Below, piece after piece: positions 2-48,457 of a DNA stretch of 64,000 nt (position 1 is the stretch's first letter; each line of letters opens with the position of its first letter). Source of the stretch: Candidatus Limnocylindrales bacterium. Lineage in GTDB: Bacteria > Chloroflexota > Limnocylindria > Limnocylindrales > CSP1-4. The notes beneath the pieces are model-generated. The model saw only the letters and a program-made list of their open reading frames with translations. It searched no databases and was not told the DNA's origin. The translations under genes and the position numbers were made by a program. The DNA is taken from assembly GCA_046707905.1 (NCBI GenBank), contig JBKKDM010000177.1, positions 11,570-75,569 on the forward strand, in the 5' to 3' direction.

Positions 2-1006
2 GCGGTCCTGGGGCGCGGCTACCGGATCACGTCCTGGAGCCCCACGACCCTGGCCACCGGGGTGTGGTGGTGGTTCGCGAGCGCCACCAGGCGGATCGGC
101 GCCGGCCCCCTGACCAGCAGCGGCAACACGGCCAGCACGTCGTTCGTGGCCGAGTCTGGCATCCCGGTCCCCAGGTACCTGTACGTGTACGAAAACGACG
201 GCATCCAGGCCCTGACCGTCCTGGCGCGCGACGTGTACGTGTACGAAAACGACGGCATCCAGGCCCTGACCGTCCTGGCGCGGGCCCTGTACATCTACGA
301 ACAGTCGCGGGACGGGGAAGTGTTCCCCTGGTTGGAGCGCCTGGTCCCGACCGAACAGGTGGTGGGCGGCCAGGTCGCAATCCACGGCGACGGCCTGGGC
401 AGCGTCGTGGACATCGCGGCCGAAGTCGGGAACGTAATCACGGCCGACAGCACCAGCGGCGGCAACATCCCGGCCAACGCCGTGGAGCGGAACACCGGCG
501 AATGGTTGTCCACCGGCTCCACTGGCGCCTGGATCAGGTTCACGTTCCCAACCGCCCAGGTCCTGACGGCCGTGTCCCTGGAGGACGCGGCGACGGGCGA
601 CTGGGGGGCGCCCCAGTTCCGGTTCAGCGACGGCGGGGCGAACGTGGCCGGCGGCAGCGCGGCGCCCAACCCGGTGTCCGCGTCGGAGTACCCGGTCGGG
701 GCGGCCAGGACCCTGTACACGCTGCCGGCGCCCAGGACCACCACGTACCTGGAAATCCGCGTCAACAGCGGGGGATCGGGCACGACCCGGGGCCTGCGCG
801 AAGTGTGGATTTACGCCGACCGGGACACGGCGGCAGAGGACTCCCAAACGCTCCTGCGCACGGACCTTATGGGGATCGTGACTTGGACCCACCGGAGCGC
901 CAACCTGTTCCCGGCGAACAGCGGCCAGGCGTCGGTGGCGGCGGCCGTGGTGACCGTCCCGCCGACCGGCGATAGCGGCCTGGTCAAGGTCGTGGAAAAC
1001 ACCTGA
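2..1006 (+). CDS. Phage structural/tail-associated protein, 5'-truncated by the window edge; IPT-like and discoidin-like beta domains
   Basis: Frame is open back to base 2. GEWLSTGSTGAWIRFTFPTAQVLTAVSLED resembles F5/8C-type domains. Directly upstream of the tail protein. Confidence 0.6.
   Translation, partial: AVLGRGYRITSWSPTTLATGVWWWFASATRRIGAGPLTSSGNTASTSFVAESGIPVPRYLYVYENDGIQALTVLARDVYVYENDGIQALTVLARALYIYEQSRDGEVFPWLERLVPTEQVVGGQVAIHGDGLGSVVDIAAEVGNVITADSTSGGNIPANAVERNTGEWLSTGSTGAWIRFTFPTAQVLTAVSLEDAATGDWGAPQFRFSDGGANVAGGSAAPNPVSASEYPVGAARTLYTLPAPRTTTYLEIRVNSGGSGTTRGLREVWIYADRDTAAEDSQTLLRTDLMGIVTWTHRSANLFPANSGQASVAAAVVTVPPTGDSGLVKVVENT
181..288 (+). repeat. 54-bp in-frame tandem duplication (2 copies plus a degenerate start of a third)
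   Basis: gtacgtgtacgaaaacgacggcatccaggccctgaccgtcctggcgcg starts at 181 and again at 235; encodes YVYENDGIQALTVLAR twice. Confidence 0.95.
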
Positions 1007-4000
1007 TGGCGGTCCGCGAGTCCAACGCCCTGTTCCTGGAAATCCTGACGGCGAGCCCGTCGTCCGGGGTCCCCATCGAGTTCGACGTGTACGACGGGAC
1101 CAATGTGGCCACGATGCTGGCCACCTTGGAAAATGCCTACGAACGGTCGTTCACCACCGCCCTGGCGGACCTGGGCGCCGGCGGGTTCCGGCTGAACCGC
1201 CACGATCCCAAGGCCACGGCCGCGATCCTCCACCAGGGGAACCTGGTCAAGTGCAAGGTCGGCGGGGTCTATCGGTTCGCCTGGTGGATCGACGACTTGG
1301 TGGACATCCCCCTGGCGCCTGGCGAGGGCGCGGCCGAGTCCATCAACGTCACGGGCCGGGGCGCCCTGGCGTACCTGGAGCGGGCCATCGTTTACCCGCC
1401 GGTGTACCCGCCGGCGACGGTGGGCTACATCGGGTCCACGGAAGTCAACAACGGCGGCGCGTCCAGCATCGCCATGGCCAAGCCCACCGGGGCCAAGGTC
1501 GGGGACACGCTCCTGTACGGGATCGCGGTCCAGGGCGGCTCCAGCGTCAACGTCACCCCGCCGGCCGGCCGGGGGTGGGTGGCCCTGCCCAAAACGGACG
1601 CCGGGACCGCCCTGGCCTTGGCCCTGTTCCGCCGGAAAATCACCAGCAGCACCATCTTTGCCACCGACACGTTCACGTTCGGCGGGGCCAACGACGCCAA
1701 CGGGATCGCCCTGGCGTTCCGGGGGGTGAACGCCGACCTGGCCAGCGGCTCCGAGGCGGCGCAGAACAACGGGTCCACCGTCAACATCACGGCCCCCACC
1801 CTGACGCCCAGCCTGGTCAACAGCGTGTCGGTCGGGTTTTTCGCGACCAACGCCGGGACCAGCGTCACGGCCCCCGCCGGCTACTTCGAACGCCGGGACA
1901 TCAGCGGCGGCGGTTGCACCATCCAGGCGTCCACCAAGGCCCTGGCCGGCCTGGACCCCACGGGCCCGATCATCGGTGTGGCCGGCGCGGCGGACGTAAA
2001 CGTCGGCGCCCACGTGCTCCTTGCGCCGTCGTCCGCGAGCGCGGCCGAGTACAGCGGCCAAACCTGGGGCGCGATCCTGGTGGACCAAATCACGGAAGCC
2101 CAGGCTAGGGGCGCGCTGCCGGACCTGACCTACGATTTCACGGCCGACCTGGACAGCCACGGGGCGGCCTGGGCGGACACCCCGGTGATCGCCTTCCCCG
2201 CCGGCACGACGCTGCTGGACGTGGTGCGCCAGGCCATCGCCATGGGCCTGGACGTGCAAATGACCCCGGAACTGCGGCTCCAGATGTTCGGGGAATACGC
2301 GCGCCACAAGGAAACGACCGTGGTCCTGCGCGCCGGCTACCACCTGACCGACACGGTGGAAAAGCGGATCGCAGAACATGGCCTGAAATCCAGGCTCCTG
2401 GTGGAGGGCGCCGGCGGCCTGTACTTCGAAATCGCGGACCCGGCCATCGAGGCGGACCCCCACGTCGGCCGGCGCGAGGGGTTCCTGTCGTTCCCTGGCA
2501 GCGCCGACCCGACCACGATGCAACGCGCCGGTGAGGCCACCCTGGCGTCCCTGGCGGCGGAAGCGGAAGCCCTGTCGATCCCGGTCACCCACGGCCTGAC
2601 GGGCGGCCACTTCGAACCGTACGCCGACTATCGCCTGGGCGACTGGATCACCCTGGACGTGCCTGGCACGTACGACCTGGAGGCGTTCCGAGTCGCCGGC
2701 CTGACCCTCCAGGACGGGGCCGGCACCGATTTCCTGGTGAGCATCGACCTGAACAGCGTCTCCCTGGAGTACCTAGCCCGGCTAAAGCGGATGCTGGACA
2801 ACCTGGGCGGCTCGGCCAGCGCCGGCGCCGGCAGCGCGGCGGGCGCCCTGTCGGGGACGGTGGGGGGCGGCGGGAGCGGCGGGGCTAGCGGTAAGGTCGC
2901 GGTGAACATCGGGGACACCCCCGGGTACCTGTACGACAAAATCGGGGTGGCCGGCCTGACCAAGGCCATCGTCGGCACCCAGGTGGTTCTGACGGCCGCC
3001 GGCACCCTGGACGGCCTGACCGACGTGGACACGACCACGGTCCCGCCGACCGCCGGCCAGGGCCTGGTGTGGGACGCGGTGGCCGGCATTTGGGAGCCCG
3101 GCACGGTGGCCACCCAGGGCGCCACGGCGGCCTTCGTCGGGGCCCGCGCCTACCGGGGGGTGGACCAAACGGGCGTCGTGACGGCCACCGACACCAGGGT
3201 CCTGTACACCGGGGCGGACTGGTTCGACACGGACGGGTTCCACGACCCGGCGGTGAACCCGTCCCGCATGACGATCCCCGCCGGCCAGGGCGGCAAGTAC
3301 CTGGCCATCGCCACCGTCCCCTGGGACACCAACACGACGGGGAACCGCCACGCCGGGTTCTATGTGAACGGGGTGGGTTACCACTCTTTCGACCGGCGGG
3401 CCGCGTCCAACATCGGGGTCCAAACCATTTCCGGTGTCCTGAACCTGAACCCCGGCGACTACGTGGAAGTCAACTGCTACCAGGACAGCGGCGCCAACCG
3501 GACCCTGAACTTTGGCCTGGCGGGCGGCTGGTTCGACCTGGTGAAACTGGACGGCGGCCGCCTGGGCAACGGGATCGGCGCCAAGGCGTACGCGAGCGCG
3601 GCCACGAACGTGACCAACGTCACATTCACCCCGGTGGCCTTGGCGGCGGAAGCGTTCGACACGGACGGGTTCCATTCCAACGTCACGAACAACAGCCGAA
3701 TGACCATCCCCACCGGGCTGGGCGGCAAGTATTTAGTGATCGCCCAGGCGGACTGGGACAGCAACACCAGCGGCGAGCGCATCATCGAAATCGCCCTGGG
3801 CGGGGCCTACGGGTCGGGCTTCTACGGCTGGAGCCGGGACAACATCCCGAACGGCAACGGCATCACCCGATCCGTGGCCCACATCCTGGACCTGGTGCCC
3901 GGCAACTACGTCGAAATGGCGGTGTACCAAAACAGCGGCAGCACCAGGACGGTCGCGCCGGCGGGCTCCAACCGCAGCAGCTTGGAACTCATCCGCATTG

Positions 4001-4407
4001 ACAGCACGGCCACCGACCCCATGGCGGTCTCCGCGTTCGCGGTGAATAACACAGCGGCCGCCCTGGCAGCGTCCGCGGCGGTGATCACTACAACGGTGAC
4101 CCTGGCGCGCGGCCGCTACCGAGTCACGGCCAGCCTGCGAACTTCGGCCATGACCACGGCGGGCAGCCCTGGGTCCGTGTATCTGCGCGTCGGCGGGGTT
4201 CAACTGCCCAACGGCACGCAGATCGACCTGCGGCCCAGCCCGTCGATCCAGTGGACTTTGTTCGGGTGGTTCGACCACACCGGCGGGAGCGTGACCGTGG
4301 ATGCGTATTTCAGCCGTGAAACGGGAACCACGACATTTGGGCTCGTCGGGACCGCCGAGGAGCGGTTCGGGCAAAAAATGATGATCGAACGGATCGGCAA
4401 CGTATGA
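1006..4407 (+). CDS. Phage minor tail / receptor-binding protein, 1133 aa, with two tandem C1q-like C-terminal domains
   Basis: Siphovirus minor-tail-like N- and mid-regions, a fibre linker (LDGLTDVD..P..GQGLVWD..W), and two ~146-aa repeats sharing GA.AY / FDTDGFH / SRMTIP.G.GGKYL. Confidence 0.75.
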   Translation: MAVRESNALFLEILTASPSSGVPIEFDVYDGTNVATMLATLENAYERSFTTALADLGAGGFRLNRHDPKATAAILHQGNLVKCKVGGVYRFAWWIDDLVDIPLAPGEGAAESINVTGRGALAYLERAIVYPPVYPPATVGYIGSTEVNNGGASSIAMAKPTGAKVGDTLLYGIAVQGGSSVNVTPPAGRGWVALPKTDAGTALALALFRRKITSSTIFATDTFTFGGANDANGIALAFRGVNADLASGSEAAQNNGSTVNITAPTLTPSLVNSVSVGFFATNAGTSVTAPAGYFERRDISGGGCTIQASTKALAGLDPTGPIIGVAGAADVNVGAHVLLAPSSASAAEYSGQTWGAILVDQITEAQARGALPDLTYDFTADLDSHGAAWADTPVIAFPAGTTLLDVVRQAIAMGLDVQMTPELRLQMFGEYARHKETTVVLRAGYHLTDTVEKRIAEHGLKSRLLVEGAGGLYFEIADPAIEADPHVGRREGFLSFPGSADPTTMQRAGEATLASLAAEAEALSIPVTHGLTGGHFEPYADYRLGDWITLDVPGTYDLEAFRVAGLTLQDGAGTDFLVSIDLNSVSLEYLARLKRMLDNLGGSASAGAGSAAGALSGTVGGGGSGGASGKVAVNIGDTPGYLYDKIGVAGLTKAIVGTQVVLTAAGTLDGLTDVDTTTVPPTAGQGLVWDAVAGIWEPGTVATQGATAAFVGARAYRGVDQTGVVTATDTRVLYTGADWFDTDGFHDPAVNPSRMTIPAGQGGKYLAIATVPWDTNTTGNRHAGFYVNGVGYHSFDRRAASNIGVQTISGVLNLNPGDYVEVNCYQDSGANRTLNFGLAGGWFDLVKLDGGRLGNGIGAKAYASAATNVTNVTFTPVALAAEAFDTDGFHSNVTNNSRMTIPTGLGGKYLVIAQADWDSNTSGERIIEIALGGAYGSGFYGWSRDNIPNGNGITRSVAHILDLVPGNYVEMAVYQNSGSTRTVAPAGSNRSSLELIRIDSTATDPMAVSAFAVNNTAAALAASAAVITTTVTLARGRYRVTASLRTSAMTTAGSPGSVYLRVGGVQLPNGTQIDLRPSPSIQWTLFGWFDHTGGSVTVDAYFSRETGTTTFGLVGTAEERFGQKMMIERIGNV

Positions 4408-6011: not shown

Positions 6012-6012
<1 letters not shown>
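5704..6012 (-). CDS. M48/YgjP-like (DUF45) zinc metallopeptidase, short
   Basis: WGSC and [10 protein letters not shown] (HExxH) motifs. This family is commonly found downstream of hsdR. TGATG-type coupling to hsdR. Confidence 0.85.
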
Positions 6013-8950
<2,938 letters not shown>

Positions 8951-8954
<4 letters not shown>

Positions 8955-9603
8955 GCTCCGCGCCCGAGGGACCCGATCCGCTCGATGACGTTCAGGTCGA
9001 GCTCCTCAGTCCGGAGTCGACCGGACATGAGTTCGCTCATCGCGCTCTTCCTCAGCGAGTCCGTCAGCGACACAAGCCTCATGCCGAGCTCGTTGGCCCG
9101 AACGATGAGGTCCAGGGCGTTGGCGATCGCCTCCTGCTCAGGCTCTGGCGGTAGCACGATCGGCAGCCGATCGATCTTGGCCTTGTTGAGGGTGTTGCCC
9201 TTGATCTGGCGATCGTGGTAATCGGCGTAGTTGAGGCCCGACAGGTAGTAGCCGAGGTACCGCTGGTTCATACCCGCCTTCGGGTAGATCGACATGATCG
9301 CCTCGTTGTGGCAGGCAGGAATGCCTAGCACGGCCACGCGCCCGATAGTCAGCTTGAAACTCATCAGCAGCGTCCCTGCGGGCACGATCCGGCCTCCGAA
9401 GACCTGTCGAAACGCGCGGCCGCTGATCGTCTCCTTCGTATGGCGGATTACCCCGTGCGGCCTCATGTCGGAGATCGCGACCCACGCGACGTTCTCCCCA
9501 TCGTCGTGCCAGTACGTGCTGTTGGCCCGGGCTGGTGTACGACCGATCGCATAGCTCGCGACGTCGGCGAACGCCTCAGTGGTCCAGTCGACGGGCAAAT
9601 CCG

Positions 9604-9607
<4 letters not shown>
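8951..9607 (-). CDS. hsdS: Type I specificity subunit, half-size (single TRD, 218 aa)
   Basis: [34 protein letters not shown] and terminal LMSGRLR; 4-bp overlaps with hsdM and hsdR. Confidence 0.9.
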
Positions 9608-11424
<1,817 letters not shown>

Positions 11425-11460
11425 GTTTGCTATGTTTGCACTTTGCCTATCTGGTGTCAA
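11425..11460 (-). promoter_or_regulatory. Putative leaderless sigma70-type promoter of hsdMSR with GCAAA(C/G) direct repeats
   Basis: Minus strand: TTGACA (11460-11455), 17 nt, AAACAT (11437-11432), 7 nt, ATG. GCAAAG/GCAAAC/GCAAAC repeats overlap the spacer, -10 and start. Confidence 0.5.
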
Positions 11461-11584
11461 ACCTCTATCTCGGGAGATCTCGGGGAGCATGTGGAGCGTC
11501 GGCCCGATTGCTAGACCGAGTCGTCGATTACCGACTCCGCGGGGGCGCGGCCGCCCGCCGACGAAGGAAGCTGAAGTTAGGGGA

Positions 11585-12571: not shown

Positions 12572-13012
12572 ATGAGCCATCCCGACCCCCTGATCATGTC
12601 GGCGGACATCGCGCGCATGGCCTTTGAGCGCCCGGAGCTCGAGGAGGAACTCGTCCAGGCTATCTACCAACACCTCGTCCTGATCGAGGGCCGGCAGCCG
12701 ACGATCGACGAGCTCCGGGAGTACGTGGACCGCGTGTCCAGTCTCGACCAGGACAAGCTGCGGCAGCGCCTTGGGCTCGGGGCGCGCCGCAGGCGCGCGC
12801 CGCGAGGGCCGGCCAAGCCCGGCCGCGGTCGCCCGAAAGGCACGGGCCTGCTGACGATGACGATCGTCCGGGACGGCAACAGGGCCCTCCGGGCCGAACG
12901 CAAGGGCCGCGCGGTGACCCAGGACGCCTTGGCCGAGCGGCTCGAGGTCTCCGCACGCACGCTGCAGGATTTCCTGAAGGCGAACAACCTGGCCTGGCCC
13001 CTCGAGGACTAG
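12572..13012 (+). CDS. HTH DNA-binding protein (C-terminal HTH)
   Basis: VTQDALAERLEVSARTLQDFLK. Confidence 0.7.
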   Translation: MSHPDPLIMSADIARMAFERPELEEELVQAIYQHLVLIEGRQPTIDELREYVDRVSSLDQDKLRQRLGLGARRRRAPRGPAKPGRGRPKGTGLLTMTIVRDGNRALRAERKGRAVTQDALAERLEVSARTLQDFLKANNLAWPLED

Positions 13013-13087
13013 TTCGCGCCAAACCCGCGCCTTTCTCGTGGGTTTCGCTCGTTTATCCCGCGCCCCCGGCGGCCGTTCAATCCGGCC

Positions 13088-13309
13088 ATGCCCTCCCTCA
13101 CCGTCCGGCTCCCGGACCACGCCGCGGCCGCACTCCATGACCTCGCACAGGTCGAGTGCCGCAGTCCGCGCGATCAGGCCGCGTTCCTGATCCTCGAGGG
13201 CCTCCGGGCGGCCAGGCCGACGTCGGCGCCGGCGTCCGGGTATCAGCCTCTGCATCGCCGATCGGCGACCCGCAAGAAGGCCGTCGTCGCACGGTCGACC
13301 GGGGCATGA
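13088..13309 (+). CDS. Ribbon-helix-helix (Arc/CopG-like) small regulator
   Basis: MPSLTVRLPDHAAAALHDLAQVECRSPRDQAAFLI; ATGA overlap with the primase gene. Confidence 0.65.
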   Translation: MPSLTVRLPDHAAAALHDLAQVECRSPRDQAAFLILEGLRAARPTSAPASGYQPLHRRSATRKKAVVARSTGA

Positions 13310-15888
13310 GCGTCATCCTCGACACCGCCCTGGCAATGGCCGCTGCGGGCTGGAATGTGATCCCACTGCACACCCCGATCGACGGCGCGTGCGACTGTCA
13401 TCGGCCCCGTTGCCCCTCCCCCGGCAAGCATCCCCGGACGAAGAACGGCCTCAGCGACGCGACCGCGGATGGCGATCAGATCCGCAGGTGGTGGGGGATG
13501 TGGCCCACCGCGAACATCGGCGCCGTGGTTCCGGACGGCTTCATCGTGGTCGACGTGGACTTGGCCGACCTCGCCACAGTCTTCCGGAGCGACGAGCTGC
13601 CAAGCACGGCGACATCGAGGACGGGTCGCGGCAGGCACCTGATCTACCGAACCAGCACGCCGATCCGGCCGAAGGTCGGCGTCCGCGAGCACGTCGATCT
13701 CCGCGGCCCGGGCTCGTACATCGTGGTCCCGCCCTCGCTCCACATCAGCGGCGCGCGCTACATGTGGGTCGTGCCGATCGAGGACGGGATCGCGGAGGCG
13801 CCGTCCTGGATCGCCGACGCGGCCGGACCACCTCGGACGGCAGGCGATCGTCCCGAGGACTCGGACGCCATTCCCGACGGCCAGCGGAACGCCACGCTCG
13901 CCTCCCTGGCGGGCACGATGCGTCGACGGGGCATGACCGCCGCCGAGATCGAGGCCGCGTTGGTGGCGGTGAATGCTCACCGCTGCCAACCGCCGCTGCC
14001 CGATGACGAGGTCCGCGCGATCGCGGCCAGTGTCGGGCGCTATCGGCCGGGCGAAGGGCGTGCGACCCGACCGACGCCCGTCCACGACGATGTCGGCGAT
14101 CCTCCCTCTTACGCCGAGGGCAGCGCGCTGGAGTCGGAACCCGGTGATTCGGTACCCGCCGAGCCCGCGGCAGGCGTGAAGCGATCCCAGGCCACCATGA
14201 TCCTGGACCTCGCGGCGGACGTCGAGTTCTTCCACACCTCGGATGACGTCGCCTACGCCCGCATCGAGCGCGACGGTCATCACGAGGTCTGGCCGCTGGC
14301 CTCGAAGGCCCTTCGATTCTGGCTCGCACGCCGCTTCCACCAGGCATACGGTCGAGCCGCTGGCGGACAGGGACTTCGAGATGCGCTCGATGTCCTGGGG
14401 GCTCGAGCGCTCTTCGAGGGGCCCGAGTGCCCGGTGCACGTCCGGGTCGCTGGTGATGGCACCGACATCTACCTCGACCTGGGCGACCCGCTCTGGCAGG
14501 CGGTCAGGATCACGGCTACGAGCTGGCAGCTCGCCCCCGACCCGCCCGTGCGATTTCGCCGCCCTAAGGGCCTGCTCCGCCTGCCGATACCCGTCCGGGG
14601 CGGAACCGTGGATCAGCTCCGTAGGTTCGTGAACGTCCGAGAGGACGACCAGGACAACCAGTGGCGCCTGTTCATCGGATGCCTGGTCGCTGCGTTCCGG
14701 CCGAACGGTCCGTATCCGATTCTCGCCCTCAACGGCGAGCACGGCTCGGCCAAGTCCACCACGGCCAAGATCCACCGCCGGCTAATCGACCCCAACAAGA
14801 GCGTCACTCGCGCCGCGCCGCGTGATGAGCGCGACTTGGCGATCGCGGCGACCAACGGGGCCGTCATCTCCCTCGACAATCTCTCGACCGTCCCGGACTG
14901 GCTCAGCGACACGCTCTGCCGGGTCTCGACTGGCCTCGGCTTCAGCACCCGAACCCTCTACGAGAACGATGAGGAGACGTTGTTCGATGCCTGCCGCCCG
15001 ATCGTCATCAACGGGATCGGCGTTCTCGGCACGCGCAGCGACCTGCTAGACCGCACGATCGACCTCGAACTGCCCCGGATCCCGGACGACCACCGCCAGG
15101 ACGAAGCTCAGTTCTGGGCGGCGTTCGATCGCGAACAGCCGGCGATCCTCGGCGCCCTCCTGGACGCGGTCTCGGGTGCCATCGGTCGGCTCGACGCGGT
15201 CCAGCTCGAGCGGGCGCCCAGGATGGCCGACTTCGCCCGCTGGGTCGTTGCCGCCGAACCAGCGCTCGGCTGGCCCGCCGGCTCGTTCCTGAAGGCGTAC
15301 ACGGGCAACCGTGACGCGATCCACGAACTGGCCCTCGACGCGGCGGTGATCGTCCCGCCGATGCGCACGATGCTCGAGGCGGGCGAATTCGTCGGGACCG
15401 CCACGGAGCTCCTCGATCGGCTCGCCGGCATCGTGGGGGAGGCGGCCACCCGGCGCAAGGGCTGGCCAGGCAACGCCACATCCCTCTCGCGGGAGCTCGC
15501 CCGGATCGCGCCGAACCTCCGCTCAGTCGGCATCGAGGTCGAGAAGCGCCGCGAGTCTCACGGCCGCCGCCTGATCGCCATCCGTATCGCCGCCGAAACG
15601 CCGTCACTCGCGTCACCGCCGTCACCGGCCATGAGCCCTGGTGACGCGGCGTCATCCGACGGCGACGGGACGGGTCTGTGGGATGGGCCGAGCGTCACCG
15701 AGGATCGCACTCGTGGTGACGAGAGTGACGGTGGTGACGGTCTTCTGCACGTTGCGCCGGACGACGGGCTCGAGGTCGCCCGGGAAGCGCTGCGGATCCT
15801 CGCCGACGACCTCACCGACGAGTCGGCTGCACGCCTCAAGGCCGTGGTCGCTCGAGCCGACGACATCGGTTGGGGTGGTCTCGCGTGA
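13306..15888 (+). CDS. Bifunctional DNA primase/polymerase (Prim-Pol) + PriCT-1 + P-loop ATPase/helicase
   Basis: GWNVIPLH..CDC...GKHP, ANIG, DVD, G.HL, DLRG.GSYIVVPPS; IPDGQRNATLASLAG (PriCT); GEHGSAKST and SLDN. Start set at ATG 13306 (overlap with the RHH stop). Confidence 0.9.
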   Translation: MSVILDTALAMAAAGWNVIPLHTPIDGACDCHRPRCPSPGKHPRTKNGLSDATADGDQIRRWWGMWPTANIGAVVPDGFIVVDVDLADLATVFRSDELPSTATSRTGRGRHLIYRTSTPIRPKVGVREHVDLRGPGSYIVVPPSLHISGARYMWVVPIEDGIAEAPSWIADAAGPPRTAGDRPEDSDAIPDGQRNATLASLAGTMRRRGMTAAEIEAALVAVNAHRCQPPLPDDEVRAIAASVGRYRPGEGRATRPTPVHDDVGDPPSYAEGSALESEPGDSVPAEPAAGVKRSQATMILDLAADVEFFHTSDDVAYARIERDGHHEVWPLASKALRFWLARRFHQAYGRAAGGQGLRDALDVLGARALFEGPECPVHVRVAGDGTDIYLDLGDPLWQAVRITATSWQLAPDPPVRFRRPKGLLRLPIPVRGGTVDQLRRFVNVREDDQDNQWRLFIGCLVAAFRPNGPYPILALNGEHGSAKSTTAKIHRRLIDPNKSVTRAAPRDERDLAIAATNGAVISLDNLSTVPDWLSDTLCRVSTGLGFSTRTLYENDEETLFDACRPIVINGIGVLGTRSDLLDRTIDLELPRIPDDHRQDEAQFWAAFDREQPAILGALLDAVSGAIGRLDAVQLERAPRMADFARWVVAAEPALGWPAGSFLKAYTGNRDAIHELALDAAVIVPPMRTMLEAGEFVGTATELLDRLAGIVGEAATRRKGWPGNATSLSRELARIAPNLRSVGIEVEKRRESHGRRLIAIRIAAETPSLASPPSPAMSPGDAASSDGDGTGLWDGPSVTEDRTRGDESDGGDGLLHVAPDDGLEVAREALRILADDLTDESAARLKAVVARADDIGWGGLA
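15603..15740. repeat. Inverted arrays of 9-bp-period GTCAC/GTGAC repeats (iteron-like)
   Basis: GTCAC at 15603, 15612, 15621; GTGAC at 15716, 15725, 15734; single copies at 15641 and 15694. Confidence 0.8.
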
Positions 15889-16064
15889 CCAGCCAGCCTC
15901 AATTAGGTGTGGAGCGCGATCCGCTCGTCGCCGCCCTCGCCCGCTACGTCGAGGCCCTCCATCGGCGCTATCCGGATGGCCCGGACCAGCTCCGCCGCGA
16001 GGGACTTGACGCCAGAGCAAAGGTGTCTCGGATGGTCAGGATTCAGAGGGACCCCGCCACGTGA
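15885..16064 (+). CDS. Small hypothetical protein between primase and recombinase
   Basis: GTGA overlaps at both ends. Confidence 0.55.
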   Translation: MTSQPQLGVERDPLVAALARYVEALHRRYPDGPDQLRREGLDARAKVSRMVRIQRDPAT

Positions 16065-17595
16065 AGCGCCTGCCACGCTCGCTCGACGAGATCGGCGGCC
16101 TCCGGGCGGCCCGCTGGATCCGGGAGTCGACGGCCGGCCAATACGACCGCTACGGGCCGGCGAGCCAGCGCGAGCAGCAGGACCGGTTCATCGAGCGGCA
16201 CGGCCTCGTCGACTCCGGGCTCGTGTACCAGGTCGCGCACAGCGGTCGGACCGTCTGGCGCTCGGCGACGATGGCCACGATGGTCGAGGACCTCCGATTG
16301 GGCCGCTTCGACCTCCTCCTCACCGGCTACTCGGACCGCTGGCAGCGCAACCTGCGCCGGACGCTCGAGCTCCTTGAGGACGAGTTGCACCCGAACGGTG
16401 TCGCTCTGGTCATGTGCGACCGGAAGATCCTGAGCACCGATCCCTCGGACTGGGACGAGCTGATCTCCGAGGCGGCGGGAGCGGAGAAGTACAGCCGTCG
16501 CTTGTCCGAGCGGATCACGGAGGGCTACGCCGCCAAGTTCGACCAGGAGCGAGATCCGGGCGGGCACGCCGGTCTGGGCTTCCGACGGCTGCCGCGGCCG
16601 CCGCACACTCTGGAGATCGACCCAGACCGGATGCACATCGCCGTCGGCCTGTTCGAGCGGTACGCCCTCGGCAACGTGAGCGCGACGGGGCTCGAGGCAG
16701 AAACCGGCCTCGCCGCGACGCGAATCCGGATGATCTTGATGAACCCGCTCTACAACGGCTGGATCCGCCGACACCGTGGTCCGAGCGAGGCTCGCCGGCC
16801 GGCCCCCTGGCGCTTCGACCCACCTGTCTCGGACGATCTGTGGGCTCGGGTCGAGGACGTGCGACGGGCAAGAACACAGGGTGGGGACCCCGCCACCGCG
16901 GTCGCATGGACCTGCTCGCCGGGCTGCTGGAGTGCACCTGCGGGAGGCGGATTCGGTCAGACGGACGGATGGGAAACTCGGAGCGGGTGGCCAAACTACA
17001 CACCGCGCCGTGTGCGGCCTGGGGTTCGAAAGCACGCATTCCCGCATCCACGTGGGAGATCCCCGTCATCGCCCAGCTCGGGTCGATCCGTGTCGACACC
17101 GCCATGCGCGCCCAGATCACGGGGGTGCTGTCCGCGAGTGAACGTCCCGTGACGATGGATCGTGCCAGGCTCGCACGCCAGATGCGTGAGCTCGCGCTGG
17201 AGCATGCCGCGGCTCGCCTCGACGACGCGGAATACCTCGTGCGGATGGCACGCCTCCGCGAAGATCTGGAAATCGTGGGGGCGCAGCCGGCCCGGGACTT
17301 GCCAGCGCGTCGCGCGACCGAGTGGCTCGACGCCCTGGCCGAAACGTGGCAGAAGGCCGATCTAGTAGAGGAGAAATCCGACGTGATCCACGCGATATAT
17401 GAACGGATCGTCATCGAAGGGCCGCGCTTCGTCGGCCTTCGCCTCACACCGGCCGCGTACCGGCACGGATTGGCGCTCGCGCTGCCAGAGGCTGTTATGG
17501 CGCGCCCGACAGGAGTTGAGCGCGCGGATGCCATAAATACTCGCATCCCGATCGAGGAAAGCCGAGACAGGCTGATCGCGGGCGAGATCGCCTGA
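16061..17595 (+). pseudogene. Large serine recombinase (integrase), split by one frameshift at ~16883-16891
   Basis: WIREST catalytic motif, DRWQRN, ILMNPLYNG, PVSDDLW in frame 1; LLAGLLECTCG Zn ribbon and coiled coil in frame 2. Adding one base in the GGGG/CCCC run restores a ~510-aa ORF. Confidence 0.88.
17498..17514 (-). other. att-core candidate: 17 nt resembling a tRNA(Arg-type) 3' end including CCA
   Basis: Minus strand TCCTGTCGGGCGCGCCA (3' T-stem, acceptor strand, CCA); the rest of a tRNA is absent. Confidence 0.6.
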
Positions 17596-17639
17596 TCCAG
17601 AGTCATAAGGTCGCATGCGCGGGGCTCCCATGAGTAGGC

Positions 17640-17990
17640 TACCGAGCGAAAGCCCAGCAGTTGGGGGATTTAGAGACGGATCCCGACGCGCAAGCCCGCG
17701 AGCTGGTCGTGAAGGAGTTGCGGCGGATCCCGCAACTCCTCGATCGTGCAGCCGTGATTCGCACGGGAAGGCTTCGCAGGGGATCTCGCGAAGCGGCCGA
17801 CCGAGCTTTGAAAGTCCCGTTCCAGTGCCCGCACGTCGGCCAGCGTGGCGCTCTTGGTCGGCGTATCCTCCGATGGCAGCAGCGGGTTCCGGCTCGAGAA
17901 GCGGCGCGCTCGCCGGAAAGGGTCGACCGTGAGGACACCCTCGTCGGTCAGCCAACCGGCGAGGGCCCGAAGCGGGCGGACATCGGCCAC
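17640..17990 (-). pseudogene. Degraded tyrosine-recombinase fragment
   Basis: VRPLRALAGWLTDEGVLTVDPF resembles the core-binding domain end; ITAAR/IEELR across a frameshift resembles TGxRxxEL. Confidence 0.4.
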
Positions 17991-18072
17991 GAGGATGTGA
18001 ACCCCGCCCTGCTGATGTCGAGCTGACCAAACTTGCGAGGACGACCTGTTACACTACGTCTGGGACTTGACC

Positions 18073-19431
18073 TCAGCAGGTTGCGGTTGCGACGCTGGTC
18101 CAACTCCGCCACGCCGGGAATTGTCCATCGCCGATTTCCCGCGCGGTCTCTCCAACCTGGTCGAGAATCATCAGCGTGCCCGACGCTGACCACGCCAGTC
18201 GGCCCTGTGAACTCCACGCCGGAAACTGGTTGGTGATCGCTTGCGCGTCGGTGATGGCGTGCTCACCGCTGCCATCGGGATGAATCAGGTGGATCTGCTG
18301 ACCATCAATCGTATCCGGGCCAGATTGGTACGCAAGCCACTCCCCATCCGGAGACCACGCCGGGTACATCTGATACCCAGCCAAGTTGGCGACCTTGCGC
18401 TCATTCTTGCCGTCGATATCGATGATGTAGATGTCGTAGTCGCCGTCGCGAGCGGAGGCGAAGGCGATCCGCTGCCCGTCCGGGGACCACGCCGGGTACT
18501 CGCCCGAATGGCTCGAGACGCGCCGCAACGGACCGCCTCTCGGGTCGATCACGGCAACGTCCTGAAACTCCGGATTGAAAAAGTGGTCGAACGCGATCTG
18601 GCAGCCATCGGGGGACCATGCGGGAGATCGGTCATCTGAGGGGCTCACGGTCAGATTGCGTTCGCACGTGCCATCGGCGTTCATAACGTAGATCTCGTCC
18701 TGGCCCTCGCGGCCCGTGCGGAATGCGATCCTCGAGCCATCCGGTGACCAAGTGGGTTTGGTATCCGGACCGAGCGCAGTCGTGAGTCTCAGCTCGTCCT
18801 GACCGGTGGCGCTCGCTCGGTAGATGTCGGCGTTGCCGAGGAGTTCCTTGGAGAACGCCAGCTCGTCCTGTTCACTGCCGTTTGGCAACTGGCTAGCGGG
18901 GGCCGCCGGCGCAGCGCACCGCTCGCTGGGCCCGGGTGTCGCCAGCTCGAGAGGGCCACCGAGATTGAGGCAGCCGTAGACTTCGCCGCCGTCGAGTGTG
19001 AAGACGAGCACGACGAGGTTGGACGGGTACGTCAAGTATGGTTGGGTCTCGAGCTCCTCGACGCGTGACCCACCCTCGATGTCCGCGAACTGGAACGGCG
19101 CGTCGTGATCTGGCTGAGGGCGATCACACGTGCTCTGGTCGTAGATGCCCCACGCGTGAGGCTGGGTCTCTCCGACCAACGTGATCTCCAGAGTCGTTTG
19201 CTCCGCTGATATCTGGGTAGCCGTGACGGTACCCACGTCTCCGCTTGCCGAGCTCAGCACGGACTGCCCTAGCCGCCCACCAACAGGGGGCGGTGGGGCG
19301 GCGGCGGTCGCGGTTGCCGGCGCAGCGGGGGAAGGCCCAGGGGAGCTAGGCGCAGGGCTCGCGCTTGCCTGGCAAGCCGACAGGAGCAGCGCGCCCCCTA
19401 TCGCCGCCCAGCAATGGTTTCCGGGAATCAC
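18073..19431 (-). CDS. Lipoprotein with TolB-like PD40 beta-propeller
   Basis: Lipobox LLSAC; repeated P.WSPDG..IAF. Confidence 0.88.
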   Translation of the reverse strand: MIPGNHCWAAIGGALLLSACQASASPAPSSPGPSPAAPATATAAAPPPPVGGRLGQSVLSSASGDVGTVTATQISAEQTTLEITLVGETQPHAWGIYDQSTCDRPQPDHDAPFQFADIEGGSRVEELETQPYLTYPSNLVVLVFTLDGGEVYGCLNLGGPLELATPGPSERCAAPAAPASQLPNGSEQDELAFSKELLGNADIYRASATGQDELRLTTALGPDTKPTWSPDGSRIAFRTGREGQDEIYVMNADGTCERNLTVSPSDDRSPAWSPDGCQIAFDHFFNPEFQDVAVIDPRGGPLRRVSSHSGEYPAWSPDGQRIAFASARDGDYDIYIIDIDGKNERKVANLAGYQMYPAWSPDGEWLAYQSGPDTIDGQQIHLIHPDGSGEHAITDAQAITNQFPAWSSQGRLAWSASGTLMILDQVGETAREIGDGQFPAWRSWTSVATATC

Positions 19432-23968: not shown

Positions 23969-25501
23969 CTAGGCCGCAGTCCGACCTGGCGCGCTCCGCG
24001 CGTCGGCCCTTGCGCGAGCCGTCGCGGGAAGGCGCCCGGGGGCCGGTGCGAGTTGGCGCTGGGATGACTCGATACTTTTCATTGCGAGAGCCAGCCGCAC
24101 AACCCCCGCCTCGATCTCGCTCGGCGCTAAATGAGCGTAGGACAGGAGCACATCCCGGTCGCCGGCTGGGAGCAGGCGAAACGAACTGATTGGATCCACT
24201 TCGACGCTAAGGGCCCGCGCGGCCATTGCCAATTTGGTACCCGAGACGCGATCGTCGACGATACGACCGACAAGCGATACCCCGGCCGGGCTGGGGGATG
24301 CCTCCAGCAAGCCCGACAGGTGCGTTCGAAGCGCACATAGCAACGCGGCCTGACGATCCGCATACGTTTGACGGAGCCGAACCACGTGGCGGCCAAGATG
24401 GCCCCCATCGATGAAGCGTGCGAGAGCAGCCTGTTCGACCGCGGCGGGCGCTTGGCCCGCAGCGTCCAGAACCTTTCGAAACGCCCCGAGGAATGGGTAA
24501 GGCACAACGGCGAAGGCGGTTCGAACGCCCGGGTAGACCATTGTCGTGAAGGTCGACACGTACATGACGTGACCAGCCGCGTCGTCCGCCTGTAACGCTG
24601 CCTCGTCGTCGAGGTCATAGCGCAGATGACCGTACAGGTCGGCCTCAACAATCAAGGCGCTATTCGCCGCCGCCCAAGCTAGGAGGCCGCCACGGCGCGC
24701 CTCGGAGAGACGACCGCCCAACAGCAACTGCCAGGCGGGCGTCACCAGTGCCAGCTTCCCCCCAGCCGGAAGATTGCCGATGACCATCCCGTCCTCGTCG
24801 ACGGTCCCAGGCACGAACGTCGGACCGGCGAGTGCTAGCGCGCGGCGTAGCTGAGGAGCCGGTGGATCCTCGAGGGCACAGAGGTCGCCCTGACGTAAAG
24901 CCGCTCGACCTGCTATTGCGCATGCAGCCTGTGCGCTGCTCAAGATGACGACCTGCTCAGGGCTGCAACGAATGCCCCGCGTCGCCGAGAAGTACGTCGT
25001 GACGGCCTCGCGTAGGCCCGGATCTCCGAGCCCATCGTGGATGTCCGATGTCAGTGGCGTGGGGTTCTTGGCGAGATCACGCCAGGCGTCCCGAAGGAGT
25101 CGCTCCCAAAGTCGGGCGGGCAGCAATCCCACATCGACATGGCCCGCCCGGAAATCGATCGTGCGTGCGGCTGCCGGACTGGCGGACTGCGAATTGTGGC
25201 TGCCGCGGCCGGGCATTCCCGGCGGTGCTGACGAACGAAGGAACGGCGCGGGCGGGGCGGCCGCAACGCGTGTTCCGACTCCGATCCTTCGGTCGAGATA
25301 GCCGTCTGCGGCAAGCTCTTCGTAGGCTGCCAGAACGGTGATCTTCCCGACCCCGAGTTCGCGTGCGAGCGAACGGACGCCTGGAAGGAGCAAGCCTGGA
25401 CGGAATCGTCCGCCTAGGATTCCCTCTCGTAACTGGCGCTCGATCTGGCGATAGAGCGGAACGCGTGCGCTCCGGTCCAGCGCCAAGAGGGGCCTCAGCA
25501 T
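23969..25501 (-). CDS. GntR/MocR-family regulator (wHTH + PLP aminotransferase-like domain)
   Basis: PLYRQI...LPGVRSLARELGV..TV..AYEEL.ADGY; VTP..Q, YVSTF. Confidence 0.93.
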   Translation of the reverse strand: MLRPLLALDRSARVPLYRQIERQLREGILGGRFRPGLLLPGVRSLARELGVGKITVLAAYEELAADGYLDRRIGVGTRVAAAPPAPFLRSSAPPGMPGRGSHNSQSASPAAARTIDFRAGHVDVGLLPARLWERLLRDAWRDLAKNPTPLTSDIHDGLGDPGLREAVTTYFSATRGIRCSPEQVVILSSAQAACAIAGRAALRQGDLCALEDPPAPQLRRALALAGPTFVPGTVDEDGMVIGNLPAGGKLALVTPAWQLLLGGRLSEARRGGLLAWAAANSALIVEADLYGHLRYDLDDEAALQADDAAGHVMYVSTFTTMVYPGVRTAFAVVPYPFLGAFRKVLDAAGQAPAAVEQAALARFIDGGHLGRHVVRLRQTYADRQAALLCALRTHLSGLLEASPSPAGVSLVGRIVDDRVSGTKLAMAARALSVEVDPISSFRLLPAGDRDVLLSYAHLAPSEIEAGVVRLALAMKSIESSQRQLAPAPGRLPATARARADARSAPGRTAA

Positions 25502-25827
25502 GACCGCTCAGCTGGACGACTAACGCGCAAGAGCAGACGGCAAATCCACCTTCTCAACGTGAACCCCTATCGACCGACGATTGAAGTCGTGCCACTTTCC
25601 GGCGGCGCGACCCAGATCCACCGAAGGCCGTCGCGACGGACCATGCCGGCAGGTCATATACGCCCGCCCTGCCCCAAGCGTTGCTACGTCGCGCTTCGCG
25701 TGCTTGACGCCAACGGCACGGGGCGGGCGGGCGCAATGACCGCCCCAAAATGCCGGCCATCAGGCCGTCGGAGCCCAAAGTGACTTCGTCCCCCAAGCGA
25801 CGCACGGTGCAGGCGGCGGAACTGCAC

Positions 25828-35433: not shown

Positions 35434-36744
35434 TCAAGGCGTCGAGGGCGATACGACGTCAATTGCCCCGTAGCGAATGACCTTCTGCAGCGTCGTCGGT
35501 AGTGTTAGGGGCTTTTCTCGGTCGCGCAAAATGTCGATCCCGACGGTTCCGCCCGTGAGCTTCCATTCGATATTGCAGAAATCACTCGGGGGGCATCGGC
35601 CTGCGGCCGAGGCGCCGACCAAGTTGTTGCTCAGCCACACGGGTGCCAAGTAGCCGCTCGCAACTTTTTGCGCCTCCTCCTCTTGGATGGACCAAACGAA
35701 TACTGCGGGACTTCGGCTGTTGCCGTTGTCAAAGGCAATCGATCCACCATCAGGTGAGACAGCCGGCCGGTAGGCATTCGGCGGCAGCGATATCGGAATC
35801 GGTTGGCCACTCAACAGCGAGACCGTAAACCAATCAGACGGCTCCTCGTCATTCGTCGTTGCCTGTTGTGAGAGAACGGTCTCCTCGGTTAGCCAACGTG
35901 CAAATCGCCCGCTCCAAGGTGGCACGGCGTCCCGTCCATCACGACCGACGACACTCACACTGGGTTCTTCCAATGTCTCCACGACCAGGATGCGCTCGCC
36001 GCCTGGAGACCAAGTGATCGACGCCTCCTCACGCTGACCGATTCCAGTCCCAAAGGGCACGCCGAGGGTCTTGAGGAGAAAGGTGCCGCCCGTCCCTGAG
36101 TCGAACAGGCACAAGACAACGGGAAGGAGCTCACCTTCACCCTCCGCGCGAACTTGGTACGCCAAGGTCAAGCCAGCTGGGTCCCAGGCGTACCCGAGGA
36201 CCCCGTTCGGTAGACGGAGAATCTCGGTGGGCTCGTCGCTGCCGAGCCCCAACTCAAAGATGGAATCCTGTCCGAAGGTATGGGTCTCGTCAGGGGGTTC
36301 GCGAAGGGCAACGAACGTGAGCATGTTGGGTGTGCGAAATCGTGGCCGCGGGCCGTTCGGTGAATCTACACGTCGGAGCACGTCGACCGTATCGGCCTCA
36401 ATGTCATACACACCGATCGCGCCGCGGTTCGCATAGGCGGCGCGGGCGACGCCCGCGCCGCCCCCGGGCCTGGCTGCCGGAACCCCATCACCACAGGCCG
36501 GGTCTGTCGGGAGCTGGATACCCTGTGTTGTGCTTGGCGTGCCTGTGGGTGTGGCGACGACCGAAGCGCTCGGAAGGCCTGAGCTGGCAGAAGGAGACGA
36601 GGCAGGCGGTGTAGCTTGGTCGAGACCGCACGCTCCGAGGAAAAGCACGGTCGACATGACTGCGACAGCGTCGCGAAGACCACTCCGACTGCCTCGTTCC
36701 AACCCATGCTCCTTCCTAAAGGTGGCCGCCCGGAGGCAACACAC
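35434..36744 (-). CDS. Lipoprotein with beta-propeller (TolB-like)
   Basis: Lipobox LGAC; WDP.G, WSPGG, VSPDGGSIAF. True start probably downstream of 36744. Confidence 0.7.
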   Translation of the reverse strand: MCCLRAATFRKEHGLERGSRSGLRDAVAVMSTVLFLGACGLDQATPPASSPSASSGLPSASVVATPTGTPSTTQGIQLPTDPACGDGVPAARPGGGAGVARAAYANRGAIGVYDIEADTVDVLRRVDSPNGPRPRFRTPNMLTFVALREPPDETHTFGQDSIFELGLGSDEPTEILRLPNGVLGYAWDPAGLTLAYQVRAEGEGELLPVVLCLFDSGTGGTFLLKTLGVPFGTGIGQREEASITWSPGGERILVVETLEEPSVSVVGRDGRDAVPPWSGRFARWLTEETVLSQQATTNDEEPSDWFTVSLLSGQPIPISLPPNAYRPAVSPDGGSIAFDNGNSRSPAVFVWSIQEEEAQKVASGYLAPVWLSNNLVGASAAGRCPPSDFCNIEWKLTGGTVGIDILRDREKPLTLPTTLQKVIRYGAIDVVSPSTP

Positions 36745-47323: not shown

Positions 47324-48457
47324 ATGACTGAATCAGGGCGCGACCTCGTCGACTGGCTCTACTACGGTGACAATCTCGAGGTCCTTTCGAGGTTCATCTC
47401 CGATGGGAGCGTCGATCTCGTGTACCTCGACCCACCTTTCAACAAGAACGCGGCCTACAGCGTCATCTTTCGCGACGAATCCGGGCGCACAAGCGACGCC
47501 CAGATCGCGACGCTCGACGACTACTGGCATTGGGGACCGACACCGTCCCGCCACTATGAGTACCTCACGAACTCCGCGGAACATCGCGGATCCGTGCCCC
47601 CCGCCCTCAGCGAGCTCATCGGGGCGCTCCATTCGGCGATCCGTCCCAGCCCGCTCCTTACGTACCTCGTCGAGATGGCAATTCGGCTCGTGGAGTTGCG
47701 TCGCGTTCTGAAATCGACCGGGTCGCTCTGGCTCCATTGCGACCCCACCGCGAGTCACTACTTGAAGCTCCTCCTCGACGCCATCTTCGGGGCCGAGCAG
47801 TTCCGGGCCGAGGTGATATGGCGACGTTCCGACGCCCACAACAATGTGGGCCAGGGTCAGCGCATCCTCGGCCGTGTCCATGACGTCCTTCTGTACTACT
47901 CGGTCTCCAATCGCTACACGTTCAACGTCACCTACACGTCGCTACCCGACTCGACCATTGCTACGTGGTACCGACACATCGAGCCGGATACCGGTCGCCG
48001 CTACAACCTGGCCGACATGACGGCGCCCGGCGGCGCTTCACCAGAGAAGCGCAATCCACATTACGAGTTCCTCGGCGTCATGCGGTACTGGCGATACAGC
48101 GAAACTCGTATGCAGGAGCTCTACGAGCAGGGCCGAGTCGTCCAGACAAAACCCGGCAACGTCCCGCAGCTGAAGCGGTACCTCGATGAGAGCAAAGGCG
48201 TCCCACTTCAGGACGTGTGGACCGATGTTCCGATGGTCCGTGGGCGCGGAACCGAGCGTCGAGGCTACCCGACACAGAAGCCCGTGGCGCTACTCGAGCG
48301 GATCATCAAGCTGGCCTCAAACCCGGGTGCAGGAGCCTCGGCTGAACGTCATCCGGGCCGCCCCGCTTGGCGAGTTCCATCCATTGGTCTTCGCGACGCG
48401 CGACTTCGTCCATCTACCTGCCACCCCGATGTCAACGTCGGTCTGCCCACCGCATAA
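47324..48457 (+). pseudogene. N6/N4 DNA methyltransferase (beta class), homology ends at ~48328 before motif I
   Basis: YYGDNL, YLDPPF, LKSTGSLWLHCD, YPTQKP.ALLERII..SNPG, then unrelated sequence with no DPFxGSG. Confidence 0.85.

Follow-up and report, generated by a model that had tools for sequence, protein, structure and literature searches.

A serine integrase gene that spans its own attachment core

The window analysed here is a 64,000-nucleotide (64-kb) stretch of contig JBKKDM010000177.1 (C177:11570-75569) from a Candidatus Limnocylindrales metagenome-assembled genome (MAG) of 3.3 Mb in 240 contigs, with 70% G+C and 4% contamination. Our subject is an integrase gene, LSR2, and a 17-nt sequence near its 3' end that copies the end of a tRNA. 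LSR2 occupies 16061..17595 on the plus strand, and its Resolvase domain, reading frames and predicted fold identify it as a large serine recombinase (LSR), a class that a first-pass annotation of this DNA had not specified. In the window the gene appears as two overlapping plus-strand frames, 16061-17152 and 16414-17595, split by a 1-nt shift in a run of Gs near 16882. Logan contigs from the probable source sample (X1) and from two other soil samples (X2 and X4) carry an extra G after 16882, with which LSR2 becomes a single open reading frame (ORF) of 511 aa. Their agreement suggests that the frameshift is probably a MAG consensus error or a minority allele.

We compared LSR2 with LSR1, an intact 517-aa paralogue encoded on another contig (C56), and with their wider family. 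The N-terminal Resolvase domain (PF00239) was detected in both proteins (E 3e-11 in LSR2, 1e-13 in LSR1), and the catalytic R-E-S-T..Q motif is invariant among 25-41 homologues. The C-terminal part of LSR2 contains a cysteine-rich zinc-ribbon region whose cysteines, together with a histidine, are invariant in the family. A family profile matched the C-terminal domain of the A118/LI integrase (4KIS, positions 217-450, E 5e-6), and the top Foldseek matches of the predicted structure, which has a mean predicted local distance difference test score (pLDDT) of 86.8, were full-length complexes of LSRs with their attachment (att) sites, Bxb1 and phiC31 (E 1e-13). The Pfam models Recombinase (PF07508) and Zn_ribbon_recom scored below their gathering thresholds, with a sub-threshold PF07508 match (E 0.063) in one of three proteins, which argues that the LSR2/LSR1 family, placed by its profile and fold matches, is a divergent clade of large serine recombinases.

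On the minus strand, window positions 17498-17514 read TCCTGTCGGGCGCGCCA. ARAGORN, run on the whole genome, found only one tRNA-Arg(CCG) (C56:13985-14060), which ends in exactly these 17 nt (tRNA positions 60-76). The first-pass annotation had named a tRNA-Arg(CCG)-type 3' end at this place, and the genome's own tRNA bears it out. The copy comprises the 3' strand of the T stem, the acceptor strand and the CCA end, and no tRNA body stands behind it, as had also been noted: ARAGORN found no tRNA gene in the window, and an Rfam scan of 17200-18200 found no tRNA-like or other family. Since none of 100 dinucleotide shuffles of the window gave a match, even with one mismatch allowed, chance is excluded as the source of the identity. 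An extra exact copy of its own last 17 nt exists for only three of the genome's 42 CCA-encoding tRNAs; the other two, Gln-CTG on C126 and Asn-GTT on C212, have ordinary island repeats that share a contig with the tRNA.

Read on the plus strand, the 17-mer is translated as (M)ARPTG within the ORF that ends at 17595, so the earlier placement of the core inside the integrase gene holds. LSR2 is 82-84% identical to its closest relatives (P0113 and P0115) over residues 1-489 and unrelated to them beyond 489, the residue that forms the G of ARPTG. LSR1 lies directly behind tRNA-Arg(CCG) on C56, on the opposite strand, and its ORF crosses the same core as A-R-P-T-G before ending within the tRNA body as LEPATFGSGTQRSIH. 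We conclude that the 17-mer is the att core of a serine integrase that targets tRNA-Arg and has a gene reading across its own phage attachment site (attP).

Integrase tails of the free and integrated forms

A search with LSR1 returned 745 homologues, and we classed the tails of the best 120. Antisense-tRNA peptides form the end of 66 of these 120, and a conserved phage tail of about 25 residues (...V.RA....IPIEG..EW..AARR.A) that of at least 36; the two kinds part right after A-R-P-T/A-G. All three tRNA-tail homologues that we inspected overlap an antisense tRNA-Arg(CCG) by 65 nt, two of these tRNAs being identical to that of the present genome. We then surveyed 80 loci from species-representative genomes, almost all of them Chloroflexota/Candidatus Limnocylindria MAGs. 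The 3' end of the integrase gene overlaps an antisense tRNA in 54 of the 80 (43 Arg-CCG, 6 Arg-TCG, 2 Arg-TCT, 1 Arg-CCT, 1 Lys-CTT and 1 Val-CAC), and in eight the integrase has the phage tail with no tRNA present. The core keeps an identical frame and position across hundreds of homologues. The first-pass annotation had staked its reading on a host tRNA ending in this sequence and on homologous C-termini diverging at ARPTG; the genome search and the alignment of C-termini found both. Its proposed exchange of the C-terminus likewise stands, at a length of 26 aa here in place of the roughly 27 suggested.

Two phage-tail homologues occupy mid-genome positions in phages, and neither has a tRNA; replication genes precede the integrase, and ParB, terminase and portal genes follow it. 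In such free phages the integrase stop codon overlaps the ATG of the following gene. The integrase ORF crosses the core, and its C-terminus differs between the free and integrated states, as is seen in LSR1, in the tails of the homologues and in orphan tail ORFs at the far ends of integrated elements. Both states occur in the present genome, the tRNA type in LSR1 and the phage type in LSR2. The gene that follows the integrase at two loci (L009:11527-12123 and L010:11527-12162) is conserved, encodes about 200 aa with no Pfam family, and overlaps the integrase stop as ATGA; integration would separate it from the integrase promoter by placing it at the other end of the prophage.

Where recombination cuts the core can be predicted from its symmetry. 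In eight of 10 attP-type sites the best-fitting imperfect dyad is centred between the Gs of ACAG|GA, and 15-19 of the 23 positions around it are complementary. This places the predicted crossover dinucleotide, GG, at 17512..17513 of the window, corresponding to CC at tRNA positions 61-62 (C61-C62), with which the 3' strand of the T stem begins. We infer that the 17-mer consists of the crossover together with everything needed for rebuilding the tRNA 3' end. Some free phages carry a core of only 14-15 nt, without the CCA.

The phage-form tail shows the signature of a maintained coding sequence. Across 12 arms on the tail-coding side of the core (P arms), the segment encoding PIEG..EW..AA has 334 third-position differences, compared with 111 at first and 136 at second positions. 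In the integrase frame, differing codons are synonymous to nonsynonymous in a ratio of 195:193; the other two frames, at 62:333 and 27:358, serve as an internal control in place of a formal test because the sequences are related. These counts indicate codon-level purifying selection on the phage-form tail. At 40-85 nt from the dyad centre, the segment concerned falls beyond a typical 50-bp attP. The phage-form tails share the ending ...AARR[SLT]A.

We ran AlphaFold2 on an alignment of 41 phage-form and, separately, on one of 41 prophage-form proteins. In the phage form, a core-encoded linker (residues 477-484) predicted with low confidence leads into a strand at 487-492 (pLDDT ~90) and a helix at 498-508 (~74). 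In the prophage form the last 22 residues have a pLDDT of 32-33 and no secondary structure. The free form thus carries a selected, probably folded terminal element for which integration swaps in filler.

It is possible, and we offer it tentatively, that the exchange of tails works as a built-in sensor of state, a directionality or commitment switch of serine integrases that is written by recombination itself. The folded phage-form tail might then be needed for integration or might mark the enzyme for turnover, and the disordered tRNA-encoded tail might change activity or stability after integration. Within an array, the arm of a neighbour would provide an old integrase with a phage-type tail again, as may have happened to LSR2. 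If this is true, regained tails could let tandem arrays move or rearrange jointly.

A junction of mismatched arms and its possible history

The core in the window is flanked by two arms that do not fit one another. On the integrase side, 17487..17511 on the plus strand is the putative P' half-site of LSR2's own attP, recognised by arm pairing, with the outer arm GGCTGTTAT and 14-nt inner spacing. Beyond the core, 17515..17595 on the plus strand encodes a 26-aa tail, VERADAINTRIPIEESRDRLIAGEIA, followed by a stop, and appears to be a foreign, decayed P arm. The tail is of the phage type and not of the tRNA type, and has lost the conserved G and W of PIEG..EW. We also considered whether this arm could be a decayed tRNA body. 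That is ruled out, because the arm resembles those of phages and its coding content is the family tail and not the tRNA.

The window P' is complementary to its own P arm at 10 of 23 positions, so the site fails the family dyad expected of a native, functional attP. Shuffled arms gave 5.9 +/- 2.0 complementary positions, with a maximum of 13. The same P' reached 20/23 with the P arm of an att scar on contig C192 (described below), and the window P arm fits the P' of LSR1 best (15/23). The centre-to-outer-repeat spacing points the same way, being 14 nt in LSR2-type sites versus 15 nt in the right arm of the window. This 15-nt spacing, a 3-nt longer spacer and the RADA..RIPI tail are common to the window right arm and the P arm of an element in G077, one of four long-contig relatives (G077-G080), and the integrase of that element is 79% identical to LSR1. 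Because the two arms are mismatched and the right one is of another subtype, the junction reads as a hybrid of two attP subtypes, P'(LSR2)-core-P(LSR1-type), and not as LSR2's native attP.

The join is present outside the MAG. The probable source sample, assembled independently from k-mers, yields a contig of 19,989 nt that spans the join and covers 15800-19000, so the join is no MAG chimera. In other samples, homology to LSR2 ends exactly at 17514; for X2-X4 only assembled contigs were available, and missing cover to the right of 17618 carries no evidential weight.

To the right, homology with other P arms ends at the LSR2 stop codon. A scrap of a tRNA-Gln(CTG) island end, consisting of an inner arm and 15 nt of core and 78% identical to C126:58672-58753, follows at 17587..17669. 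At 17976..18080 a DNA search found a repeat of ~100 nt that occurs at many contig ends across the genus, often at most 150 nt from the end, and is probably the end of an insertion sequence or a miniature inverted-repeat transposable element. Beyond this short repeat the flank consists of ordinary genes. The ~200-aa post-integrase gene of free phages and its neighbours had no tblastn matches in the genome, so the right flank is not identifiable as phage DNA, and tblastx of the flank against the genome gave only noise from high-GC ORFs. A DNA search of 60 genomes of the genus found no synteny, only short repeats and PD40 repeats, so no empty site could be reconstructed.

Both ends of an element could be mapped in the four relatives. 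All have the tRNA at one end and direct core repeats, and the elements span 8.7-36.5 kb. In G078 a 13.3-kb element lies between direct core repeats, with integrase-P'-core-tRNA at one end versus flank-core-P at the other, and the P arm holds an intact orphan ORF, ARPTG-VGRALATYEIPIEGRDEWLAAARRLA-stop. The far junctions in G079 (8.7 kb) and G080 (36.5 kb) consist of a short remnant of an integrase 3' end, the core and a P tail, which is the P'-core-P layout of the window. A tblastn search to the left of these two junctions found no full older integrase, only remnants of ~20 aa. G077 has three cores, 9.9 and 8.8 kb apart and ending at the tRNA, and is a tandem array. Every element of a relative with both ends mapped sits at the tRNA itself.

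We consider it likely that the site in the window is a fossil junction between tandem mobile elements. The LSR family occurs on phages and small islands of Chloroflexota (Limnocylindria) and inserts into tRNA-Arg 3' ends, mostly Arg-CCG, from an attP located ~80 nt before the integrase stop codon and antisense to the tRNA. The 14-17 nt from the predicted crossover to the CCA end are phage-borne, such that the tRNA is rebuilt on integration. The same event cuts the integrase ORF, exchanging the ~25-aa tail of the free form, which is predicted to fold, for ~15 antisense-tRNA residues. Tandem accretion is workable because nearly all of the predicted bacterial attachment site (attB) lies within the tRNA. 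In the order of events that we propose, an LSR1-type element would have entered the tRNA rebuilt by an LSR2 prophage, leaving the internal junction LSR2-P'-core-P(LSR1 type), and the right-hand neighbour would since have decayed or been rearranged. The array would run off C177 to the LSR1 element and the tRNA on C56. The first-pass annotation had offered either an unused attP or a tandem junction; the arms of different subtypes and the P'-core-P junctions left of tRNA-Arg elements in relatives speak for the latter and not the former.

Several observations weigh against a tandem array. The intact tRNA had been expected to the right and outside the window, and it does lie outside, on C56 beside the paralogous integrase, but ARAGORN found no tRNA-Arg on C177 rightward of the site, over 146 kb. 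An attempt to join the right end of C177 to C56 by homology with the G077-G079 elements matched the integrase side only. The right flank is a patchwork of scraps in which P-arm homology halts at the stop codon. A second, degenerate P'-core-P junction in the same orientation lies 132 kb to the right (C177:161618-161648), where a 76-nt remnant with 96% identity to the LSR1 3' end is followed by a core that lacks 1 nt and by a P arm that resembles the one in the window apart from a 15-nt deletion. The intervening 132 kb hold a tRNA-Gly gene and many ordinary genes and form no simple element; they may be bounded by the two ends of an LSR1-type element, later overgrown or rearranged, and the tRNA-Gly gene inside argues for rearrangement over a single island. 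Solitary P'-core-P scars also occur among ordinary chromosomal genes, at C186:~450-640 and C192:8470-8753. Both comprise a short integrase 3' remnant, a core with one mismatch and a tail ORF, and the C192 scar is followed by an inverted 180-nt fragment from the central part of an LSR2-like gene. Each arm-matching score is drawn from 23 positions, and the contrast between folded and disordered tails is one of structure prediction only. Finally, we know of no LSR that recombines attP with attL-type sites unless the site acts as attB, which is what we assume here.

Some of these points would also fit integration at a secondary site, in which the LSR2 phage entered a solitary old att scar away from any tRNA. 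The scars on C186 and C192 show that such sites exist among ordinary genes, C177 has no tRNA-Arg, and the right flank is not an element. Yet a scar of this kind offers P-type half-sites, whereas the studied LSRs (phiC31, Bxb1 and A118) require attP-attB pairing for synapsis. Moreover, the both-end-mapped elements of relatives are all at the tRNA itself, and the right arm in the window is of the subtype of LSR1, whose element occupies this genome's tRNA. We regard integration into a scar as unlikely.

A native, unrecombined attP would require that the phage DNA arrived by another route, or that it was episomal and assembled beside the chromosome. The P'-core-P layout is indeed that of free phages, the integrase is intact in independent contigs, and a second copy of the core was not found in 29 kb to the left. 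Against this, the window's own arms pair at 10/23, compared with 15-19/23 in functional attPs, and the left arm pairs at 20/23 with the C192 scar; the right arm has the spacing of the LSR1 subtype, and the conserved G and W of the tail are lost. The phage DNA also ends at the stop codon, where free phages continue with an overlapping gene that has no homologue in the genome, and one 20-kb independent contig joins phage and flank. We hold a native site to be distinctly improbable. An assembly artefact or chance, meaning a coincidental 17-mer or a chimeric join, can be all but dismissed: the MAG is in 240 contigs with 4% contamination and LSR2 itself carries a 1-nt error or variant, but no match arose in 100 shuffles, the frame and position of the core are shared with hundreds of homologues, and the independent k-mer assembly spans the join.

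The LSR2 element extends leftward from the site. A PrimPol/PriCT_1 replication protein, assigned by domain match, is encoded in the same element at 13156..15888 (plus strand), with genes for weakly matching helix-turn-helix (HTH) and ribbon-helix-helix regulators, below the Pfam cut-off, upstream of it at 12572..13309 (plus). Domain matches further identify a type I restriction-modification cargo at 6012..11490 (minus), consisting of hsdR, a half-size hsdS and an HTH-hsdM gene, and a large phage tail-like protein at 1006..4407 (plus). Phage-like co-oriented genes extend to the start of C177. We found nothing convincing as a left att site, a second core copy or an orphan tail in C177:1-29066 (29 kb), so the far end of the element lies off the contig.

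Beyond the site, ~134 kb of C177 run at 65% G+C, versus 70% for the genome, and this stretch contains a tRNA-Gly island and defence-like cassettes as well as a decayed casposon; mobile and defence-like genes abound in the 132 kb that separate the two junctions. At the right end of C177, two ORFs that look E1/JAB-like by eye gave no Pfam matches. The LSR1 element carries, at C56:15820-20040 (L124:1820-6040), genes for an AAA/STAND-like ATPase, a ThiF-type E1, a Prok-JAB peptidase, Prok-E2_D and a ThiS-like small protein. Several of these matches are below Pfam cut-offs, and the cassette appears to be of the ubiquitin-like conjugation type; cassettes of such kind have been linked to phage defence. 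On C126, exact copies of the tRNA-Gln 3' end at 47401 and 58643, ~11 kb apart and on the tRNA's strand, accompany tRNA-Gln(CTG) at 69811-69885 and indicate two tandem islands at that tRNA. On C212, a direct repeat of the 3' end of tRNA-Asn(GTT) (25433-25507) occurs at 35531, 10 kb downstream, and probably marks another integrated island.

Relation to known integration systems

Unidirectional insertion of large DNA relies mainly on serine integrases as tools, and these have been described with very short cores, protein-coding targets and a separate directionality factor. The Limnocylindria clade, a large natural one, breaks with the first two descriptions, using a tRNA 3' end as target and a 14-17-bp core that rebuilds it. 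With attP inside the integrase gene, the C-terminus of the enzyme records whether the element is free or integrated, and if the tail affects activity or stability, this would be a new and simple control of directionality. Hybrid att junctions are, moreover, recognisable from arm subtypes, which aids the delimitation of islands in fragmented metagenome genomes. In the literature we found no serine integrases that target tRNA genes or have attP inside the integrase gene, which is absence of evidence only.

With A118/LI, Bxb1 and phiC31 the family shares a resolvase catalytic domain, a recombinase domain and a zinc ribbon with coiled coil, and its att sites are probably short imperfect dyads too. 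It differs from them in targeting a tRNA 3' end and not a protein gene, in having attP inside the integrase ORF, and in carrying an additional C-terminal stretch of ~55 aa, the end of which is swapped by integration. Archaeal integrases of the SSV1 type also combine an attP inside the int gene with a tRNA-Arg target, and their gene is partitioned on integration. These are tyrosine recombinases of an archaeal virus, and their int gene is split into two large parts and inactivated, with no exchange of a short tail.

The proposed tandem junction resembles arrays of integrative and conjugative elements and cis-mobilizable elements such as ICESt1/ICESt3, in which a second element enters the regenerated att site and leaves hybrid internal junctions. 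There, decayed neighbours retain only their att ends, and the integrases are tyrosine recombinases. In the present case the older integrase would also acquire a foreign C-terminal tail through the internal junction.

Among bacteriophages, the Int-S prophages of M. abscessus have cores of 5-8 bp and insert into ORFs (PMC8092301), compared with cores of 14-17 bp here; the rebuilding of the tRNA 3' end would explain the greater length. Integration-dependent immunity in mycobacteriophages places attP inside a phage gene, so that integration alters the C-terminus of a protein, and C-terminal ssrA-like tags on Rep and Int set the stability of those proteins (PMC8092301). That system differs in that the gene split is the repressor's and the integrase is a tyrosine integrase. 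By analogy, a role of the ...AARR[SLT]A ending in degradation is speculation here.

The closest published analogue of the LSR2/LSR1 design is intP/intX of the Myxococcus phage Mx8. There, attP sits in the coding part of the integrase gene, and integration yields a recombinant gene whose 3' end is new; according to a review, this changes how the integrase behaves (PMC6070905, citing Tojo 1996 and Magrini 1999). The Mx8 enzyme, however, belongs to the tyrosine recombinases and is unrelated in chemistry and fold. What is particular to the present case is the Limnocylindria/tRNA-Arg clade itself, the presence of both tail states in one genome, and a hybrid junction that can be read from its arm subtypes.

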